Below are positions 952 to 64,000 of a stretch of DNA of 64,000 nt, one piece after another. Position 1 is the first letter of the stretch; every line of letters begins with the position of its first letter. The stretch is from an uncultured Candidatus Saccharibacteria bacterium (GTDB lineage Bacteria > Patescibacteriota > Minisyncoccia > Phycocordibacterales > UBA9973). The DNA is taken from positions 22,628-86,627 of the forward strand of contig CAYVDC010000005.1 in the NCBI GenBank assembly GCA_964450735.1, written 5' to 3'. The notes beneath the pieces were generated by a model, which was not told where the DNA came from, did not search any database, and saw only the letters and a program-made list of their open reading frames with translations. A program made the position numbers and the translations under genes.

Positions 952-977
952 TTTACCAGCATAAACCCAAATCTCTG

Positions 978-1099
978 CCACCTATGGCGATGAGATGCTC
1001 ATGGCGCGTCGGCGCACTTTTGAGCGGAGCACAAAGGTGCCCGATCAAAAGTGCGCCGTAAGCGTTCTCCCAGAACTTCATCCCATTTCACCACCTAGG
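978..1099 (+). repeat. Copy 1 of a conserved structured intergenic element of about 95 nt (long imperfect hairpin)
   Basis: About 90% identical to 5375-5471 and to the reverse complement of 26448-26545; 14-bp stem CGGCGCACTTTTGA/TCAAAAGTGCGCCG around an inner stem-loop. Confidence 0.6.
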
Positions 1100-5168: not shown

Positions 5169-5177
5169 GATTTTAAA

Positions 5178-5205
5178 AGACCGCCTGTGTGGCGGTTTTT
5201 TTATT
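5178..5205 (+). terminator. Rho-independent terminator after ftsZ
   Basis: ACCGCC-tgtgt-GGCGGT hairpin followed by a T-run. Confidence 0.7.
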
Positions 5206-5225
5206 TGTGGTTATTTGGAATTATG

Positions 5226-5471
5226 TTCTGGGAGAGCGCACCAGCAGTAGTTTCCTGACTTGCTCACGCTGCGTCAGGAGAACTACTGCTTCGCGCCCTG
5301 TGCATCTCATCACCATACTCATTGGCAATCACTACCTTTACGGTAAAAACATCTAAGTCACTTGCCACCTATGGCACAGAGATGTTCATGGCGCGTCGGT
5401 GCACTTTTGAGCGGAGCACGGATGTGCCCGATCAAAAGTGCACCGTAAGCGCTCTCCGAGGACTCAAATCC
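5226..5471 (+). repeat. Copy 2 of the intergenic structured element, composite: 17-bp hairpin, linker module, then 95-nt core
   Basis: GCAGTAGTTTCCTGAC/GTCAGGAGAACTACTGC hairpin; module cgccctgtgcatctcatcacc...ttacggtaaaaa shared with 26521-26580; core 5375-5471 matches copy 1. Confidence 0.6.
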
Positions 5472-5523
5472 CAATATTAATCTATTTTTGTATTCAAACG
5501 ACCACATGATACAATAGCACTCT

Positions 5524-7256: not shown

Positions 7257-7263
7257 ATTGGTG

Positions 7264-7335
7264 TGATCCCACGGAGAGTCGAACTCCGGTTAACGGATTG
7301 AAAACCCGCTGTCCTAACCACTAGACGATGGGACC
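7264..7335 (-). tRNA. tRNA-Glu (anticodon UUC), no encoded CCA
   Basis: Reverse-strand cloverleaf GGTCCCA/TGGGATC acceptor stem, anticodon loop TTTTCAA; near-identical to 37770-37844. Confidence 0.85.
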
Positions 7336-14192: not shown

Positions 14193-15440
14193 TCAATACA
14201 CTTCCCCCATATACGGCAGCGGCAGGTTCCAAATATACGCATCGCGGCTTGTCTGTTCATCGCGCTCAACTTTTCTCCATGATACTGAGCCTAAACTTGC
14301 AGCCAGGTTGATTGCACCCGTCCCAAACCGCGCACGGATCTGGTCCACGGCGTGCAGTATTTCATTTTTCTCCAAAACTTTTTCCTGCGAGCCGAACAGA
14401 TCAAACTGAAGGTCTTTATTTTCCCGGAGCTCCATGACAGTAATTCCCGTTGCGCGATACATCATTCCCCGTTCATGCAGGCCCGTAATTTCTTTTTCGA
14501 GATAGGCCAGCATGTCACTCGGATTGTTCGTATGTTTTGGAAATCGCGTCCATGCAGACGTATAGCCTCTCAAACCATGTTTCCAGAATATCGAAGCTGC
14601 GCCGGCATACTGTCCGCTTTCTCGCAATCGCATACAGATGATTTCTATATTTCGGGAAAGTTCGGAACGCATGAAAGCAATATCGCTCGTCGCGTGGCTG
14701 AACGTGCGCACGGCCTGAAACGATTTCTGGACTTGATGCGATCCACCAACACGCACCGGCATGACGCTTCGGCAATTCAATTCATGCCACATTTCTTTGA
14801 TTGGCATGGCAAATTTTTTGATGTCAAAATCATTCATTCGTGCGAAGTCATATGCATACTGCCAGCCGCGATTGCGGAATTGCTCGCCAAGCCGCCAGCC
14901 AATGCCCCAGATATTTCCAATTGGAATTTTCTTGAGCGTTTCAATCACTTGTTCATCAAGCAAGACAGTACAGCCATCAGGCTTCTGTAATTTAGAGGCA
15001 ACTTTTGCCAGCACTTTTGTACTTGCTAATCCAAATGAAAACGTAATACCAAGCTCTCGCTGAACGGTAGTTTTGATACTGCGAAGCATTGCTTCCCACG
15101 AACCGTATTTCTTCATGTCTTCCTCTGAAAATTCTGCAAAGCATTCATCGATACTGTAGTGCTCGACTCGAGAGGTAAAACGCTTCATGACACTGTACAA
15201 TTTTTCCGAGTACATGTGATAGAGCTCAAAATGCGCATTCAGGATCGTGACCTGCGGAAACTCCCGCTTTATTTTAAAAATCGGCATGGCGCGATGAATA
15301 CCCAACGCTTTCGCTTCGTATGTCATGGCGCAAGCGATACCGCGGTCGCCTCCGACAACGACCGGTTTGCCTTTTAAGTTCGGGAATCTGGCCACCTCGC
15401 AGGCAGCAAAGAATCCGTCTCCATCTACATGCAAGATCAT
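14193..15440 (-). CDS. Y-family translesion DNA polymerase (DinB/UmuC-like)
   Basis: N-terminal ILHVDGDGFFAACE with catalytic Asp pair, SIDECF acidic motif; 4-nt overlap with upstream lexA. Confidence 0.85.
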   Translation of the reverse strand: MILHVDGDGFFAACEVARFPNLKGKPVVVGGDRGIACAMTYEAKALGIHRAMPIFKIKREFPQVTILNAHFELYHMYSEKLYSVMKRFTSRVEHYSIDECFAEFSEEDMKKYGSWEAMLRSIKTTVQRELGITFSFGLASTKVLAKVASKLQKPDGCTVLLDEQVIETLKKIPIGNIWGIGWRLGEQFRNRGWQYAYDFARMNDFDIKKFAMPIKEMWHELNCRSVMPVRVGGSHQVQKSFQAVRTFSHATSDIAFMRSELSRNIEIICMRLRESGQYAGAASIFWKHGLRGYTSAWTRFPKHTNNPSDMLAYLEKEITGLHERGMMYRATGITVMELRENKDLQFDLFGSQEKVLEKNEILHAVDQIRARFGTGAINLAASLGSVSWRKVERDEQTSRDAYIWNLPLPYMGEVY

Positions 15441-15442
15441 GA

Positions 15443-16024
15443 CTAATATTTACGGACTACTGCTTTGACCACGGCGGCAATACGCAGGCCTTCTTTGGGG
15501 TATATCGCCTTGTAGCGCTTGTTTGCAGGCTCAAGATGAGAAACACCACGTTCTGTGCGCAAATACTTCATGGTCCACATTCCATCGACTTCCGCGATCA
15601 CAATCTCACCAGGTTTGGCAGTTTCAGTACGTTCAACAATAACCAAATCGCCTTCTTTGATACCGGCATCATCCATCGAGTCGCCTTTTACTTTGAGCAT
15701 GAAGCTAGCGTCGCGATTGTCTATCAAAAAGTCATCGAGCGTTACCGTATCAAGCAAGTTTTCTTCGCCGGGAGTTGGAAAACCGGCCTCAACCAAGCCA
15801 AGGACTTTCAATGGGCCTTTCTGGAACATAATTTCATTTGGAATCATGCGGCCGCTTTTATCTTTGGAAAGAACTCCCATTGAGCAGAGATGCGAAATGA
15901 TGCGATGGGCAGAATCCTTGGAACGAAGCCCAAAAATGCGCGCGGCTTCTGAGTATGACGGCATGCGGCGCTGGCTTTTGTAAAAATCGGCCAATTTTTT
16001 GATGTAGGAAGCTTCGTTATGCAT
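15443..16024 (-). CDS. lexA: LexA repressor (S24 peptidase with N-terminal winged HTH)
   Basis: wHTH SYSEAARIFGL..AHRIISHL; VEAGFP Ala-Gly cleavage site; GDSM serine and downstream Lys of the S24 dyad. Confidence 0.9.
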   Translation of the reverse strand: MHNEASYIKKLADFYKSQRRMPSYSEAARIFGLRSKDSAHRIISHLCSMGVLSKDKSGRMIPNEIMFQKGPLKVLGLVEAGFPTPGEENLLDTVTLDDFLIDNRDASFMLKVKGDSMDDAGIKEGDLVIVERTETAKPGEIVIAEVDGMWTMKYLRTERGVSHLEPANKRYKAIYPKEGLRIAAVVKAVVRKY

Positions 16025-22365: not shown

Positions 22366-25143
22366 ATGGAAAACCCTCCAAACATTCCGGAAAAGTTCCT
22401 CAAGGCCTATGATGCTGCGGCTACTGAAAAAGATGTGTATCAGCGCTGGGAAGCCAGCGGCTTTTTTAATCCAGACAAATGCATAGAAGCTGGCGTCACT
22501 GCCCCCGATGCAAAGGCATTCACTATCATGATGCCTCCTCCGAACGTCACCGGCGTTCTTCACATGGGACATGCCATGATGCTCACCCTCGAAGACATTA
22601 TGATCCGATTCAAGCGAATGCAGGGCTACAAGACATTATGGCTTCCAGGAACTGACCACGCCGCAATTGCAACGCAATCAAAAGTAGAAAAAGAAATTCA
22701 AAAAAAAGAAGGCAAGTCTCGCCACGATCTCGGGCGAGAAGAATTGTTGAGCCGAGTGAATGCGTTTGCCCAAGACAGCCACGACACTATTGTCTCGCAG
22801 GTAAAAGTGATGGGCGCATCATGTGACTGGTCACGAGAGGCCTTTACCCTTGATGCTCCTCGCAATCGCGCGGTAAACACCATGTTCAAGAAAATGTACG
22901 ACGATGGATTGATCTATCGCGGACATCGCATCGTCAACTGGGATCCAAAAGGCCAAACAACTATCGCTGACGATGAAATCGTATACGAAGAGCGAAAGTC
23001 AAAGATGTACACATTTAAGTACTCAAAAGACTTCCCTATCTCGATCTCTACTACTCGACCTGAAACAAAGGTTGGTGACTCTGCGGTTGCAGTTCATCCC
23101 GAAGACCCTCGATACCAGGAATTTATCGGAAAAGAGTACGATGCAGTATTCTGCGGAGTTCCAATCCATATCAAAATCATTGCAGATGAATCGGTAGAAA
23201 AAGACTTTGGCACTGGCGCACTCGGCGTTACTCCTGCTCATTCGATGACAGACTGGGAAATCGCTGATCGTCACAACCTTCCACGCAATCCTGTCATCAA
23301 TGAATACGCAAAAATGACCGTTGGTGGAGAGAATATTAAAGGGAAAAAGACGACCGAAGCACGCGAAGTCATTGTTCAATGGTTGCGCGATGAGGGTTTG
23401 CTTGAAAAAGAAGAAGACGTCACTCAAAACATTGGAACTGCTGAACGAACCGGCGGCATTATTGAGCCGTTGCCGAAACTTCAGTGGTTTGTAGACGTAA
23501 ACAAGGAGTTCGAACTTCCTCACTCAAATCTCACCGGAATTCCAAGTGGATCAAAAACTACATTCAAAGAAATCATGCGCAAGACCGTCGAAAGCGGACA
23601 GATCAAAATTCTGCCTGAGTATTTCGACAAAACATATTTCCACTGGATCGACAATTTGCGCGACTGGTGCATCTCACGACAGATTTGGTACGGACACCGC
23701 GTGCCAGTGTGGTATGACGCAGAAAAGAAAGAACATCTTCCAAAAAAGATAACTCTTTTGCTTGCTCGGCACGGGGAAAGCGAAGCTAATGCCAACGACA
23801 TATTTAGCGGCGGCAATTTTGACAGCCCGCTCACTCAAAAAGGAATCGATCAAGCGCATGAACTCGGCAAGAACTGCAAGACAATGAAAATCGACGGCGT
23901 TCTTTCATCGGCAATGAGCCGCAGCAAAGACACTGCGAAGTTTGCTTGCGAGGAACTCGGTATCAATCCTACCTCGGTCATTGAAATTCCTGAACTGCAT
24001 GAAGTTAAAAGCGACATGGACGGAAAGCCGAAGACAAAAGACCACTTCCGATTGAGCCAATTGATTCGTGAAGGAAAGGGAGAAACGATTGAACAAATAA
24101 AAGACCGTGCGGATGCGGCGCTTGCGAAAATTTCTGCCCTCGACGAAGGCACGTATCTCGTTGTTGCTCATAATGCATTCAATGCCTGCCTCCAAGCCCG
24201 CATCATGGGGATGGACGGAGAAAAAATTATTCAGCACTGGGAACATGTTGGTATCCGAGATAATGGCTCGGTAATGGAAGTTACTCTCATTGTTAATCCT
24301 ACTGATCCAGAACTTAAACAAGATGAAGACACGCTCGACACTTGGTTTTCATCTGCTCTTTGGACATTCTCAACCCTCGGATGGCCTGACAAAACAAAAG
24401 ACTTGGAAATCTATCACCCAACCGATGTTCTTGAAACTGGATACGAGATCCTTTTCTTCTGGGTTGCCCGCATGATCCTCATGACTGGCTACGCACTCGG
24501 AGACATTCCATTCCACACCGTATACCTGCACGGTACTGTTCGAGACGGCCAAGGACGCAAAATGTCCAAATCACTCGGCAATGGAATCGATCCGCTCGAC
24601 ATCGCTGCAAAATACGGCGCTGACGCGGGACGTATGGCTCTTGTTGTTGGAACTGCAGCTGGAACTGACTCAAAAATTTCTGAAGACAAAATCAAAGGTT
24701 ACAAGAACTTCTGCAATAAGCTCTGGAACATTACACGATTCATTCTTTCCAACACAGAAAATGTCACTCTCGATGAATCCTTCGGCGCATGGAGCGAACA
24801 AGACACAAAACTGATCGCGGAATTCAATACCATCAAAGCAGAAGTCACCCGAGAATATTCTGAGTACAAATTCCATATCGTTTCTGAAAAATTGTATCAC
24901 TATGCATGGCACAGCCTCGCTGATGTGATACTTGAAGACAGTAAAAAAATATTTACCGAAGGCACCGATGCTGAGAAAGCTTCGCGAGCACAGTTCTTGC
25001 TTGCAACACTCTACGATCTCTTGAAGCTTCTCCATCCGCTCATGCCGTTTGTTACCGAAGAAATTTGGAGTTTGCTTCCTACACAGGGTCGACTCTTAAT
25101 GGTAACAAAGTGGCCTGCATTGGCCGAGCAGCATGAATCCTAA
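22366..25143 (+). CDS. valS: Valyl-tRNA synthetase carrying an inserted histidine-phosphatase domain
   Basis: HIGH motif PNVTGVLHMGHA, KMSKS motif, WYGHRVPVWYD and QDEDTLDTWFSSALW blocks; insert at residues about 458-648 has an RHGESEAN signature; no C-terminal coiled coil. Confidence 0.95.
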   Translation: MENPPNIPEKFLKAYDAAATEKDVYQRWEASGFFNPDKCIEAGVTAPDAKAFTIMMPPPNVTGVLHMGHAMMLTLEDIMIRFKRMQGYKTLWLPGTDHAAIATQSKVEKEIQKKEGKSRHDLGREELLSRVNAFAQDSHDTIVSQVKVMGASCDWSREAFTLDAPRNRAVNTMFKKMYDDGLIYRGHRIVNWDPKGQTTIADDEIVYEERKSKMYTFKYSKDFPISISTTRPETKVGDSAVAVHPEDPRYQEFIGKEYDAVFCGVPIHIKIIADESVEKDFGTGALGVTPAHSMTDWEIADRHNLPRNPVINEYAKMTVGGENIKGKKTTEAREVIVQWLRDEGLLEKEEDVTQNIGTAERTGGIIEPLPKLQWFVDVNKEFELPHSNLTGIPSGSKTTFKEIMRKTVESGQIKILPEYFDKTYFHWIDNLRDWCISRQIWYGHRVPVWYDAEKKEHLPKKITLLLARHGESEANANDIFSGGNFDSPLTQKGIDQAHELGKNCKTMKIDGVLSSAMSRSKDTAKFACEELGINPTSVIEIPELHEVKSDMDGKPKTKDHFRLSQLIREGKGETIEQIKDRADAALAKISALDEGTYLVVAHNAFNACLQARIMGMDGEKIIQHWEHVGIRDNGSVMEVTLIVNPTDPELKQDEDTLDTWFSSALWTFSTLGWPDKTKDLEIYHPTDVLETGYEILFFWVARMILMTGYALGDIPFHTVYLHGTVRDGQGRKMSKSLGNGIDPLDIAAKYGADAGRMALVVGTAAGTDSKISEDKIKGYKNFCNKLWNITRFILSNTENVTLDESFGAWSEQDTKLIAEFNTIKAEVTREYSEYKFHIVSEKLYHYAWHSLADVILEDSKKIFTEGTDAEKASRAQFLLATLYDLLKLLHPLMPFVTEEIWSLLPTQGRLLMVTKWPALAEQHES

Positions 25144-26392: not shown

Positions 26393-26399
26393 ACAATAC

Positions 26400-26436
26400 A
26401 AAAGAGCGGCGCCTTCGGCGCCGCTCTTTTGTATTT
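26400..26436 (+). terminator. Rho-independent terminator after hsp20
   Basis: AAGAGCGGCGCC-ttcg-GGCGCCGCTCTT followed by a T-run. Confidence 0.75.
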
Positions 26437-26445
26437 AGATCGTTT

Positions 26446-26745
26446 ATGGATTTGAGTCCTCGGAGAGCGCTTACGGTGCACTTTTGATCGGGCACCTTTG
26501 TGCTCCGCTCAAAAGTGCACCGACGCGCCCTGAGCATCTCATCGCCTTACTCATTTGCAATCGAAACTTTTACGGTAAAAATTTCGATTGCAATACTCTG
26601 GGAAAGAAGATGCCAGGAGCACGGAGCCGAGTATGCCTGAAAGGGGCTTTCGGAGCGCGACCCGGCGCGAGAACGAGCCAAAAACTCAGCAGAGTTTTAT
26701 GGCGTCCCCTTTCAGGCATACTCGGCGTAGTGCCCTCCGAGAACC
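26446..26745 (-). repeat. Copy 3 of the intergenic structured element (core inverted), plus linker module and a large hairpin with 21-bp perfect arms
   Basis: Reverse complement of 26448-26545 matches the core of copies 1 and 2; module 26521-26580 matches 5291-5352; arms GCCGAGTATGCCTGAAAGGGG (26626-26646) and its complement (26706-26726). Confidence 0.6.
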
Positions 26746-26770
26746 CTAATCCAAACGACCTATGAGATCA

Positions 26771-37769: not shown

Positions 37770-37844
37770 GGTCCCATCGTCTAGTGGTTAGGACAGCGGG
37801 TTCTCAATCCGTTAACCGGAGTTCGACTCTCCGTGGGATCACCA
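37770..37844 (+). tRNA. tRNA-Glu (anticodon CUC) with encoded CCA
   Basis: Same sequence as the 7264-7335 tRNA except for the anticodon loop TTCTCAA; ends ACCA. Confidence 0.85.
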
Positions 37845-44956: not shown

Positions 44957-45086
44957 AAATGTTATTTTGTAACACCGCACACATAAGGAATTTTGAATCC
45001 GAGGAAACGCAGCCCGCCTTTGTGCTGCATATTGCGGGCGAACCCGCAGGATTAAAAATTACTTATGTGTAAGGTGTGCATGATTA

Positions 45087-61548: not shown

Positions 61549-61662
61549 CTTTTTAGGATCTTTGGATTTCTCGTAATTCCAACAAATCTGGCAGCGACTG
61601 CCAACATACTCGTGCCCGCGGCTGCAGACTTTTCCTTCAGAATTTTTTTTCTGCTTGCTCAT
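61543..61662 (-). CDS. Candidate 39-aa zinc-ribbon-like small protein, start overlapping the upstream stop (TAATG)
   Basis: MSKQKKNSEGKVCSRGHEYVGSRCQICWNYEKSKDPKKK; C-x3-H-x6-C-x2-C; below the ORF-track length cut-off; found by reading the strand. Confidence 0.3.
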   Translation of the reverse strand: MSKQKKNSEGKVCSRGHEYVGSRCQICWNYEKSKDPKKK

Positions 61663-64000
61663 TAGTGAGAATTTACGAATGATCTGGTAAGCGGTCCGAA
61701 GTACCCAATGGCAGGCGCAATTTTGTTCGCTTTCTGGAATTTAATCAAGGCGGCAGCTGTCTTTGCACCAAAGGTGGTAACCTCGTTACCGGCTGAACCC
61801 ATTCCAGAAGTTGCTATTGGAAAACCATGAGTGTTTAAGTACTTTTGCAATTGTAGTACTTCCTCACTGCCTGAACCAAGCTTCAACGTTTGAGTAAATA
61901 CAAACTTGGCAGCTGATGGCTGTGTATTTAGGGATGTAATAGTAGCAGGCTGTAATGTAGTTAAAGTTCCTACTGACGGTGTCTGACTTGAAACGAATTG
62001 TACGGGAACACCGCCACCGTTCGTTGTATTTGCCTGTGCAGCAATACCAACACATCCAGAGACGACACCTCCATCTATGACTGACCAATTATATACCCCC
62101 ATCAAACGAGCTCGAGACGCTGATGCCAAGCAATACTTGCTTTGTCCTCCGTCAAAAGAAACATTTGATCGGAGATTTTGGCTTGCCCAAGAGCTCAGCA
62201 TGGCATCATAATTTGTCCGTGAAAGCGTAACTCCAGTAAACATATCAACCATATTGGTAACATCAGCGACATCCCACGAGCTCAAATTCTGGTCAAAATC
62301 TGTGGTGAGATAAAACATGCTGTCCATGTTTGTAACATTACTAGTATCCCACGAGCTAATATCCTGATTGAAGTGCGTGTCATACGCAAACATTGCATAC
62401 ATATCTGTTGCAGCACTTACATCCCAACCGCTGATGTCTTGATTGAAACTTGTGCCTTGAAATGCGTTTCCAAAATATGTCACATGGCTGACATCCCAAT
62501 TATCCAGTGGCTGATTAAAAAGCTCAGCACCCATAAACAGTGTCCCCATTCCAATGACGCTTGAAGTATCCCAATTATTGAGTGGCTGGTTGAATGCATT
62601 CGCCTCATAGAACATTCCGCCCATTCCGGTAACATGTGACACATCCCATGAATTGAGCGGCTGGTTGAATGCATTTGTGCTCATAAACATTGAAGACATA
62701 TTCGTCACATTGGCAGTATTCCAGTTGCTTATGTTTTGGTTGAATACGGAAGCTCCCATAAACATGCCATCAAAACTTGTCGCACTTGATACATCCCAGT
62801 TATTGAGCGGCTGGTTGAATGCAGCTGCACCGGTAAACATCGAATCAAATCGAGTAACATGAGAGACATCCCAAGAGTTGAGCGGCTGGTTGAATGCGGC
62901 ATCAGCGTAAAACAAACCAATCATATTAGTCACATTTGAAGTGTCCCACGATGAAATGTCTCCATTGAATGCTGTTCCTTGAAAAACCCCGATCATTGAA
63001 ATGATAGATCCAGTATCCCAACCGCTCAGATCTTCGGTAGTGACTCCGCTGTCTCGAAGCATATATGTCATATCTGTGACGCCGGAAAGGTCGGGAGCAT
63101 CAGTGGCGGTAATTGCAAGATTGGTACATCCAAAAAATGCACCAGCCATATTTTCCCATGCTATCGTGCCCCATTGATCAACTGAGAGTATTTTATTTTT
63201 ATCACCAGCATATGCAAACGTTATCGCTGGAAAAACACCAGAAATTGATACTGTGTATGTACCGGGCGTCACATAGGTATGTGTAATTGCCCCTGTAACA
63301 CCAGTATCTGTATTTGAATCTCCCCAATCAACATTGTAGTTATACGTAAGACCATTTGTTGTTGGAATAGTGATCTGATTGCTGCTGGATACTCCAGGAT
63401 TGTCTGTTTTCCAAGTAGTAATAAATTCTGTTGCAGGAGCATCAAGGTCCGTAATTACAATCTCATCAACATAGTCACGATCAACTGCAGCTCCATATCC
63501 AGCTGTGTATTGAACAAGACCAGATGGGTAGGTCGCATCTGTTGCAGAACCAAGCAGCGTATAGGTAACGCCGTCATCTGAATAGTAAAAACTCAATGAA
63601 GTGCCAATTGCGGTTGCTTTAAACCAGCGAGGCTGTGATTTCGGCAAACTACCACTCCACAGCGGAGTATATGTTCCTGAAGAAACTCGCCAAATATATA
63701 CGTTGCTTGAATCATAGACATGGAATAAATATCCCATTCGCGCACCTGCTGAGTTTACTACGCTCGTATCAATTGCTTGGGCGCGAAGAGTAAATCCACC
63801 GCGACCAAGATTGTTCGAGTAAGCCTGTTTCCATATTACTGATTGATCCGCTGAACCAGCAAAGTTATCAAATAATATTCCGGCAATAACGCCAGTTTGC
63901 GTAACAGCTCGTAATGAATTACCCAATGTTGGTTCATTTTGAACATCAAAAGTTCCTGCAGTTACTGTTGTATTTGCAGGAACTTGGCCGATTGTATCAG
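61662..64000 (-). CDS. Large surface protein with PKD domain, DUF285-type repeats and C-terminal peptidoglycan-binding domain; 5' end lies outside the window
   Basis: Frame open to the window edge; PKD-like VDWGDSNTDTG..PGTYTV; about 12 repeats FNQPLN[NS]WDVS.VT.M; C-terminal PG_binding_1-like LQLQKYLNTHGF... Confidence 0.7.
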   Translation of the reverse strand, partial: DTIGQVPANTTVTAGTFDVQNEPTLGNSLRAVTQTGVIAGILFDNFAGSADQSVIWKQAYSNNLGRGGFTLRAQAIDTSVVNSAGARMGYLFHVYDSSNVYIWRVSSGTYTPLWSGSLPKSQPRWFKATAIGTSLSFYYSDDGVTYTLLGSATDATYPSGLVQYTAGYGAAVDRDYVDEIVITDLDAPATEFITTWKTDNPGVSSSNQITIPTTNGLTYNYNVDWGDSNTDTGVTGAITHTYVTPGTYTVSISGVFPAITFAYAGDKNKILSVDQWGTIAWENMAGAFFGCTNLAITATDAPDLSGVTDMTYMLRDSGVTTEDLSGWDTGSIISMIGVFQGTAFNGDISSWDTSNVTNMIGLFYADAAFNQPLNSWDVSHVTRFDSMFTGAAAFNQPLNNWDVSSATSFDGMFMGASVFNQNISNWNTANVTNMSSMFMSTNAFNQPLNSWDVSHVTGMGGMFYEANAFNQPLNNWDTSSVIGMGTLFMGAELFNQPLDNWDVSHVTYFGNAFQGTSFNQDISGWDVSAATDMYAMFAYDTHFNQDISSWDTSNVTNMDSMFYLTTDFDQNLSSWDVADVTNMVDMFTGVTLSRTNYDAMLSSWASQNLRSNVSFDGGQSKYCLASASRARLMGVYNWSVIDGGVVSGCVGIAAQANTTNGGGVPVQFVSSQTPSVGTLTTLQPATITSLNTQPSAAKFVFTQTLKLGSGSEEVLQLQKYLNTHGFPIATSGMGSAGNEVTTFGAKTAAALIKFQKANKIAPAIGYFGPLTRSFVNSH
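62232..63164 (-). repeat. In-frame tandem repeats of about 66-69 nt (22-23 aa) inside the surface-protein gene
   Basis: Protein-level repeats F[ND]Q.[LI][SN].WD[VT]S.VT.M.[SG]MF repeated about 12 times. Confidence 0.6.

Follow-up and report, generated by a model that had tools for sequence, protein, structure and literature searches.

Paired hairpin units of a Paceibacteria-like lineage, probably non-autonomous palindromic mobile elements

Genomes of the candidate phyla radiation (CPR, Patescibacteria) are small, tightly packed and usually thought to be poor in repeats. What, in such a genome, is the hairpin-forming sequence that recurs almost unchanged between the genes of a 64,000-nucleotide stretch of an uncultured Candidatus Saccharibacteria bacterium (contig CAYVDC010000005.1, positions 22,628 to 86,627; hereafter the window)? 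A first-pass annotation, made from the letters of the sequence, had described three copies of a structured intergenic element of about 95 nt, and had proposed either a mobile repeat resembling MITEs (miniature inverted-repeat transposable elements) or repetitive extragenic palindromes (REPs), or a family of structured small RNAs. Empty loci in relatives, mosaic modules and inverted doublets all support the mobile repeat. The best-supported description is a new family, closest in logic to REPINs and close also to bacterial MITEs. We consider it probable that this is a family of non-autonomous palindromic mobile elements acting as single-stranded DNA.

Results

Five units at three loci of the window

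The three copies were found where they had been placed, at 978-1099, 5375-5471 and, inverted, 26448-26545. In a repeat search of the window, 976-1077 and 5363-5464 are 88% identical, 983-1086 and 26446-26549 (inverted) 89%, and 5370-5471 and 26448-26549 91%. Their core 19-mer, GCACTTTTGAGCGGAGCAC, occurs exactly three times in the window and gave no match in 100 shuffles. The hairpin also proved to be as described, with an outer 14-bp stem (CGGYGCACTTTTGA/TCAAAAGTGCRCCG) and an inner stem (CGG-A-GCAC/GTGC-CCG). The 4-nt loop that closes it varies: copy 1 and copy 3 have AAAG, copy 2 has GGAT. The pyrimidine/purine difference that separates copy 1 from copies 2 and 3 is a true compensatory change from C-G to T-A. 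The folds of the three copies are much stabler than those of shuffled sequences (z = -5.5 to -6.6), and the reverse strands are about equally stable.

All three copies are thus real, but the window holds five units at three loci. Two diverged units that had been overlooked, c2rc and c3B, came to light when the conserved flanks were used as search motifs. In the 64 kb, nhmmer profiles made for the 5' part and the 3' part return exactly these five units and none else, as does the covariance model R1 (Table 1). A unit is also longer than the 95 nt first proposed, copy 1 (c1) spanning 952-1099. The sequences that bracket this copy, CCACCTATGG and CCACCTAGG, are not a target duplication: the former is a piece of the conserved leader, also carried by copy 2 and by a unit of a related contig (L014), and the latter is the 3' tail of the unit. 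From 5' to 3', c1 consists of TTTAC, a leader, a 5' box, the helices P2 and P3 (1010-1058), a 3' box and a tail whose end reads ACC, followed by TA.

The other four units form two pairs, each joined 5'-to-5'. Unit c2rc has the family boxes around a different hairpin (GCAGTAGTT-C-TCCTGAC...) and its 3' end abuts the ftsZ terminator, while its partner c2 ends just before the trxB promoter. In the second pair, the 3' end of c3 abuts the bidirectional hsp20/gdhA terminator (26395-26435), and c3B, in which the family boxes enclose a 101-nt hairpin with a branched apex, reaches the gdhA stop codon with its 3' end. The units have a G+C content of 48-53%, compared to 43% for the window, and are located in the largest intergenic gaps.

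Occupied and empty loci in related genomes

Syntenic loci of relatives were obtained via FtsZ and GdhA homologues, and two loci (L029 and L046) through a pattern scan of metagenomes. Nine further units were found in five related metagenomic contigs, so that the family comprises 14 units at eight loci, arranged as six head-to-head pairs and two solos. The pairs lie in the ftsZ-trxB and gdhA-hsp20 spacers of the window, in the priA-rpsU spacer of L004, and in L029, L046 and L052 (with an identical copy in L053); the solos are c1 and the L014 unit. R1 was built from 12 units, and it recovered both L052 units, which were not in its seed, at 62.8 and 45.3 bits. The covariance-model search for copies, which the first-pass annotation had proposed for the whole genome, was run on the window and the relatives (207 kb) and yielded the 14 units and nothing more. 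The nhmmer box profiles agree with R1 over ~460 kb, and about 0.5 Mb of relevant sequence was covered in total.

The presence of units varies between close relatives. For each of the three window loci, some of these relatives (FtsZ 88-98% or GdhA 90% identical) have a short spacer without a unit, and units are present in one genome and absent from another when the proteins are 96-98% identical. The empty sites look clean. Family units are absent from the L005, L007, L009, L010, L011, L012 and L054 loci, and the priA-rpsU spacer of L011 holds a different hairpin element. Comparison of filled and empty sites showed TA after most 3' ends and T-runs flanking the ftsZ-trxB insertion, the empty sites being themselves diverged.

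Units also differ from one another module by module. The L014 unit and L046f (L046) have hairpins that are 93% identical and leaders that are 53% identical. Among c1, c2 and c3, the 5' box and hairpin are 90-96% identical and the 3' parts 64-81%. The leader of c3B is 89% identical to that of L052r (L052), and its hairpin is the type B module of L004c (L004), with 78% identity. Unit c3 is the positional orthologue of L052f, yet it has the derived apex common to c1 and c2. The three near-identical cores have therefore spread very recently within the window's own lineage, through transposition or else through gene conversion of units already in place.

The family occurs in a narrow Paceibacteria-like CPR lineage, to judge by the labels 'Candidatus Pacebacteria' and 'Nomurabacteria' on FtsZ and GdhA matches of 73-76% identity. 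An exact search for the hairpin 19-mer in GTDB species representatives, a pattern that is too specific, gave three chance matches only, all without the hairpin. A degenerate 3'-box pattern had 37 matches in JGI metagenomes, of which two are real (L029 and L046); this pattern is too strict and misses the L052 units. No match was found by blastn in a phage and a plasmid collection, nor by pattern scans of viral contigs.

Two side observations concern the same spacers. Elements at L007 11270-11450 and L011 4040-4130, in spacers that hold family units in the window, are laid out like the family, with a conserved flank ..TGATGGCCTGC, a perfect variable hairpin of 16-18 bp and then ..CTYCGGC.TMCCGTARG; in L007 they form a head-to-head pair whose loops share TCGTAAACTC. 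From their sequence, they may constitute a sister family. In the ftsZ-trxB spacer, a gene of 237-249 aa without a Pfam domain is found at L004 11395-12144 (-) and L005 11297-12010 (-). The window, L011 and L014 lack this gene, so that the spacer is a general hot spot of gain and loss.

Table 1. Positions of the units and central palindromes in the window, and state of the three spacers in the window and its relatives
Feature	Position or locus	Strand	Details
Unit c1 (copy 1)	952..1099	+	Solo; flanked by the priA stop (951) and the rpsU promoter; covariance model 58.5 bits (983-1082)
Unit c2rc	5203..5347	-	Diverged; covariance model 62.2 bits; P3 5244-5289
Junction palindrome TTACGGTAA	5338..5346		Common to the c2rc/c2 pair
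Unit c2 (copy 2)	5337..5487	+	Covariance model 63.1 bits; P3 5397-5445
Unit c3 (copy 3)	26433..26579	-	Covariance model 67.4 bits; P3 26474-26522
Central palindrome TTGCAATCGAAAcTTTTAC-G-GTAAAAaTTTCGATTGCAA	26555..26593		19+19 nt, 95% complementary; built by the c3 and c3B leaders
Unit c3B (type B)	26569..26765	+	Diverged; covariance model 39.8 bits; P3 26626-26726
priA-rpsU spacer, empty	L005, L007, L009, L014		43-70 nt
priA-rpsU spacer, occupied	Window; L004		Window, 179 nt with solo c1; L004, pair with other hairpins
ftsZ-trxB spacer, empty	L011, L012, L013		76 nt; FtsZ 98% identical
ftsZ-trxB spacer, occupied	L014; window		L014, solo at the junction of c2rc; window, pair
gdhA-hsp20 spacer, empty	L054		8 nt
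gdhA-hsp20 spacer, occupied	Window; L052/L053		Pairs

Anatomy of the units and of the doublet junction

A unit measures ~145 nt, or ~197 nt with the larger type B apex, and a doublet ~290-340 bp. As the units of a doublet are joined 5'-to-5', their conserved 3' boxes form its outer, inverted ends. Each of the 14 units has YTTAC directly on its 5' side. This is followed by a leader of ~30 nt, which reads (S)GTAAA..GATTGnnAAT..TATGG or takes a variant form containing ..CTAAGTCAYTTGCCACYTATGG, and by the 5' box, GAGATGCTCAnGGCGCG. P2, formed by GGCGC on the 5' strand and GCGCT on the 3' strand, is separated by a small internal loop from P3, a nearly perfect helix of 14-21 bp and variable sequence that often has one bulged base after 9 bp and often ends in an apex CGCGAG-n3-5-ACGAGCG. 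The 3' box, AGYGCTCTCCnRGRACnnnAWTCC, precedes a tail of ~10 nt (A.ATAAC.AYC), after which TA is usually found. The lengths of the parts are nearly constant, with 56-62 nt preceding P3 and 38-44 nt following it. The apex AGTACGAG resembles the sarcin-ricin loop, a likeness that was judged coincidental.

The leaders of a pair meet at TTAC-S-GTAA, and the junction is exact in the doublets at six of the eight loci. TTACSGTAA occurs only at these six pair centres (seven with the identical L053 copy; two in the window and five in the loci) and nowhere else in the ~530 kb of window and loci. In several pairs, the leaders make up a palindrome with arms of 19-22 nt. Two ways of forming a pair were considered and rejected. 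Insertion of a second copy 3' of the TTAC of the first predicts SGTAA beyond one 3' end, which is not seen. Fold-back hairpin replication does not fit a centre with an odd single base and arms that carry different hairpins.

Covariation and strand asymmetry of the hairpin

Selection on structure had been argued from a single compensatory change; the support for it is in fact far stronger. In a hand-anchored, ungapped alignment of 12 units, 94.1% of the cells are paired, 11 of 16 pairs are changed on both sides, and none of 500 shuffles reaches the observed score, while slid controls are 20-53% paired. In the outer part of P3, changes on both sides affect eight of nine pairs. The P3 arms were picked by complementarity, so that the 100% pairing of P3 is partly by construction; what is real is that every unit carries, at the equivalent place, a perfect stem of 9 bp or more whose sequence differs. 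For P2, whose alignment used the flanks only, 87% of the cells are paired; three pairs are doubly changed, and a G-T (G-U) is conserved in 11 of the 12 units. The outer stems of c3 and its positional orthologue L052f stay paired although C-G in one is T-A in the other, and their apices are different. The c3B apex and its counterpart in L004c (L004 7211-7406) are related by a compensatory change from CTC/GAG to TTT/AAA in an apex stem. An outer flank helix drawn by RNAfold for single copies has no covariation support (70.5% paired, 186 of 500 shuffles as high), and RNAalifold retains P2 and P3 only. Conservation thus concerns the sequence of the boxes and the structure of the hairpin.

Fold z-scores of the units range from -5.5 to -8.2. 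In all 14 units, which represent roughly eight independent lineages, the hairpin of the forward strand equals or exceeds that of the reverse strand in stability, and the GA-rich apex motif is asymmetric. Strand stability, the G-T of P2 and the asymmetric apex point to strand specificity. Wobble pairs are absent from the outer P3 (0 of 104 cells) and G-U accounts for 2 of the 292 pairs predicted over the full hairpins, much below the level that is usual in drifting RNA stems. Strand-specific folding, nearly pure Watson-Crick stems and bulged bases are the look of single-strand DNA recombination sites, such as the ends of IS200/IS605, REPs and attC.

The same hairpins could be read as structured non-coding RNAs. 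Each unit would then be transcribed, the pairs divergently from their central palindrome, and the P2-P3 fold with its conserved boxes would serve as a protein-binding site or exert a cis effect on the neighbouring mRNAs. The strong covariation of both helices, the loop that varies while the stems are kept, the conserved G-U, the better or equal folding of the forward strand, the apex motif common to many units and the low z-scores all agree with such a role. The transcription signals do not: no sigma-70-like promoter was found within the window units or next to them, none of these units has its own terminator, and the solos have no partner that would supply upstream sequence. Candidate -10 boxes of a central bidirectional promoter (TAAAAG, TAAGGA and similar) have no T at position 6 and the scan was negative. 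P3 was likewise rejected as an intrinsic terminator, since it has no downstream T-run; the scan reported nothing but the ftsZ terminator next to the units (5175-5201) and some small sub-hairpins within them. The first-pass annotation had matched the element to no RNA family, in agreement with Rfam: at gathering thresholds the whole window gives five tRNAs only, the unit regions being without match, and in E-value mode these regions give just sub-threshold hairpin-type miRNA and terminator-like sRNA models. Moreover, c1, c2 and c3 have lost the shared apex motif, yet they are the units that multiplied most recently. Because promoters and terminators are lacking, orientation is mixed, units are dispensable and G-U pairs are so rare, the evidence leans against a standalone RNA. 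The small-RNA option has found no positive support, and we regard it as unlikely; it keeps some weight through the slight strand asymmetry of the hairpin and the one conserved G-U of P2, and is the most serious of the alternatives.

Position of the units relative to genes

Every unit has a stop codon or terminator on one side and, on the other, the promoter or stop codon that comes next, and c2rc, c3, L014, L029r and L052f directly abut terminators. The earlier description, in which every copy sat downstream of a gene with one copy per terminator zone, was partly right, but the orientation of all units to the flanking genes is mixed: the L014 unit is antisense to both of its neighbours and c3B converges on gdhA.

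Such positions, together with the exact and conserved central palindrome, could indicate signals that serve the host. REP, ERIC and Correia elements have been suggested to play roles of this kind. The units would be extra transcription barriers, stabilisers of mRNA 3' ends or insulators, or TTAC-S-GTAA with its GATTG arms would be the operator of a dimeric DNA-binding protein. Against this, the hairpins are not followed by T-runs, close relatives have no units at the equivalent loci, the flanking genes (rpsU, trxB, gdhA, hsp20, holA) are functionally unrelated and no regulator is linked to the units. A host-serving function is, in our opinion, distinctly improbable.

The ATG of the conserved TATGG could also open short genes for peptides of 25-50 aa. 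An open reading frame (ORF) runs from this ATG through the hairpin in c1, c2, c2rc, L004a, L014 and L029f, and from the downstream ATG of GAGATG in c3, c3B and L004c; the L004 annotation even calls a 151-aa gene through a unit. However, L046f and L046r lack this ATG, and a stop follows after five codons in L029r. A 2-nt indel separates c3B from L004c, with different frames upstream. The peptides share only residues that the conserved box encodes, no ribosome-binding site precedes them, and the compensatory changes of the stems alter them freely. Frame shifts and missing ATGs largely refute this reading, which is scarcely credible. The public 151-aa gene (L004 7253-7708) is a type B unit read in frame into rpsU (S21), an annotation artefact.

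Other features of the window

Pfam searches of all 67 sizeable ORFs of the window revealed ordinary housekeeping genes. A LexA-like S24 peptidase gene adjoins a Y-family polymerase (IMS) gene at 14193-16024 (-), in a small SOS-type cassette. The 925-aa class I aminoacyl-tRNA synthetase ORF at 22366-25143 (+) has a His_Phos_1 domain at residues 464-640, which its orthologues in L052 (738 aa) and L054 (743 aa) lack. Tandem repeats of 75-nt period at 62485-62897 (four 113-nt copies with 75/150/75-nt spacing, 64-76% identical) lie inside a 754-aa DUF285/PKD/PG-binding ORF (61662-63926, -), probably a repetitive surface protein. The tRNA genes at 7263-7335 (-) and 37770-37842 (+) are 99% identical and inverted, 30 kb apart.

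Two other intergenic hairpins were noted. A long inverted repeat in the mraW-mraZ spacer (44972-45077; 29-nt arms, 86% complementary, 48-nt loop) is outside the family by both the profile hidden Markov models and the covariance model. The hsp20/gdhA terminator (26395-26435) and its counterpart in the 98%-identical L052 (5150-5190) have kept the outer arms AATACAAAA...TTTTGTATT and have wholly different inner G+C stems. This comparison suggests that the intergenic hairpins of this lineage generally evolve through stem replacement.

Discussion

REPINs are inverted doublets in which compensatory changes of the hairpin are common and singlets are remnants (PMC3116915). The present family resembles the REPIN/RAYT system in being extragenic and non-coding, with no transposase inside the element, in consisting mostly of two inverted units with singlets alongside (doublets at six of eight loci here), and in having conserved boxes that bracket a hairpin with common compensatory changes and a presumed folding as single-stranded DNA (PMC3116915, PMC3337134). 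It differs by the size of its units, ~145 nt against 20-40 nt in REPs (PMC3733652). Each unit has its own long hairpin, those of a pair can be of quite different types, and the units meet at an exact 9-nt palindrome without a spacer. The low apparent copy number, the CPR host and the absence of a RAYT (REP-associated tyrosine transposase) gene from the 64-kb window by Pfam are further differences.

With bacterial MITEs such as Correia, ERIC, RUP and BOX (PMC3184786, PMC10969869, PMC11602168), the family shares short, intergenic, multi-copy and non-coding elements with long hairpins, and the presence/absence polymorphism of individual copies. Both units (145-197 nt) and doublets (290-340 nt), all intergenic, fall within the MITE size range of 50-800 bp. 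A whole doublet has long imperfect inverted ends, its outer 3' parts being 63-68% identical as inverted repeats and most being followed by TA. Unlike in MITEs, no target-site duplication could be demonstrated, no parent insertion sequence with matching ends is present in the window or the fetched flanks, and the conserved parts are internal boxes and a covarying hairpin, not the termini alone.

IS608 inserts 3' of TTAC, uses strand-specific hairpins and has neither inverted repeats nor target duplications. The YTTAC found 5' of all 14 units, the strand-asymmetric hairpin with its bulged bases and the lack of terminal inverted repeats in single units and of demonstrable target-site duplications recall this IS200/IS605 group. 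In the 12 paired units, however, YTTAC is the complement of the partner's 5' end, and it stands against host DNA only in the solos c1 and L014. No TnpA or TnpB gene is present in the window or flanks. Integron attC sites were rejected: the aligned units have no RYYYAAC...GTTRRRY cores, they lie head-to-head and not in arrays, and Pfam detected no integrase domain among the window ORFs. A search of the literature on CPR MITEs or palindromic repeats found nothing relevant. The element works like a REPIN or a MITE, fails the strict definitions of both, and membership in either is not established.

Several observations weigh against a mobile element. Neither the 67 window ORFs nor the called genes of the fetched flanks contain a transposase, recombinase, HUH or reverse transcriptase domain; at least within the window, the elements are thus non-autonomous. 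Known copies are few (five in 64 kb, 14 overall), and the exact-pattern scans of GTDB representatives and JGI metagenomes yielded almost nothing. Filled and empty sites show no clear target-site duplication, the empty ones having diverged, and the pattern could partly stem from recombination between strains rather than transposition. The GTAG/CGTC tags that REPs carry at one end (PMC3733652) are absent: CGTC stands before the hairpin in c1-c3 alone, GTAG is limited to c3B, and neither is conserved in the 12-unit alignment. Single units have none of the terminal inverted repeats of at least 10-15 bp that define MITEs (PMC11602168). They have one central P2-P3 hairpin, where IS200/IS605 elements have two subterminal ones, and no conserved hairpin in leader or tail. 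Lastly, an RNA would show a conserved G-T, strand asymmetry and strong covariation just as well.

We nevertheless favour a palindromic mobile element, for which the following scheme may be proposed. The doublet would be the replicative unit and the solos half-remnants. A transposase encoded elsewhere in the genome would move the elements in trans, one specific strand folding as single-stranded DNA during transposition or replication, by analogy with the IS200/IS605 and RAYT enzymes. Copies would then swap modules via recombination or gene conversion; the hairpin sequence itself drifts by compensatory change or is exchanged between copies. We see little chance that the family is instead something newer: either a single-strand DNA transposon of a new kind, in which the doublet is the replicative form and the hairpin a cassette exchanged between scaffolds, or divergently arranged structured RNAs specific to the CPR, with the conserved G-U and the GA-rich apex as features for recognition by a protein.

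Turnover between genomes with 96-98% identical proteins would mean that mobile DNA is active within a reduced genome, and the family could be used as a marker for strain-level typing. The exact TTAC-S-GTAA junction and the YTTAC of every unit provide a handle for finding the mobilising enzyme. The family also bears on annotation. The strong covariation of such elements can pass for a new RNA family in comparative screens, and annotators mistake them for genes, as for the L004 unit presented as a 151-aa protein fused to S21.

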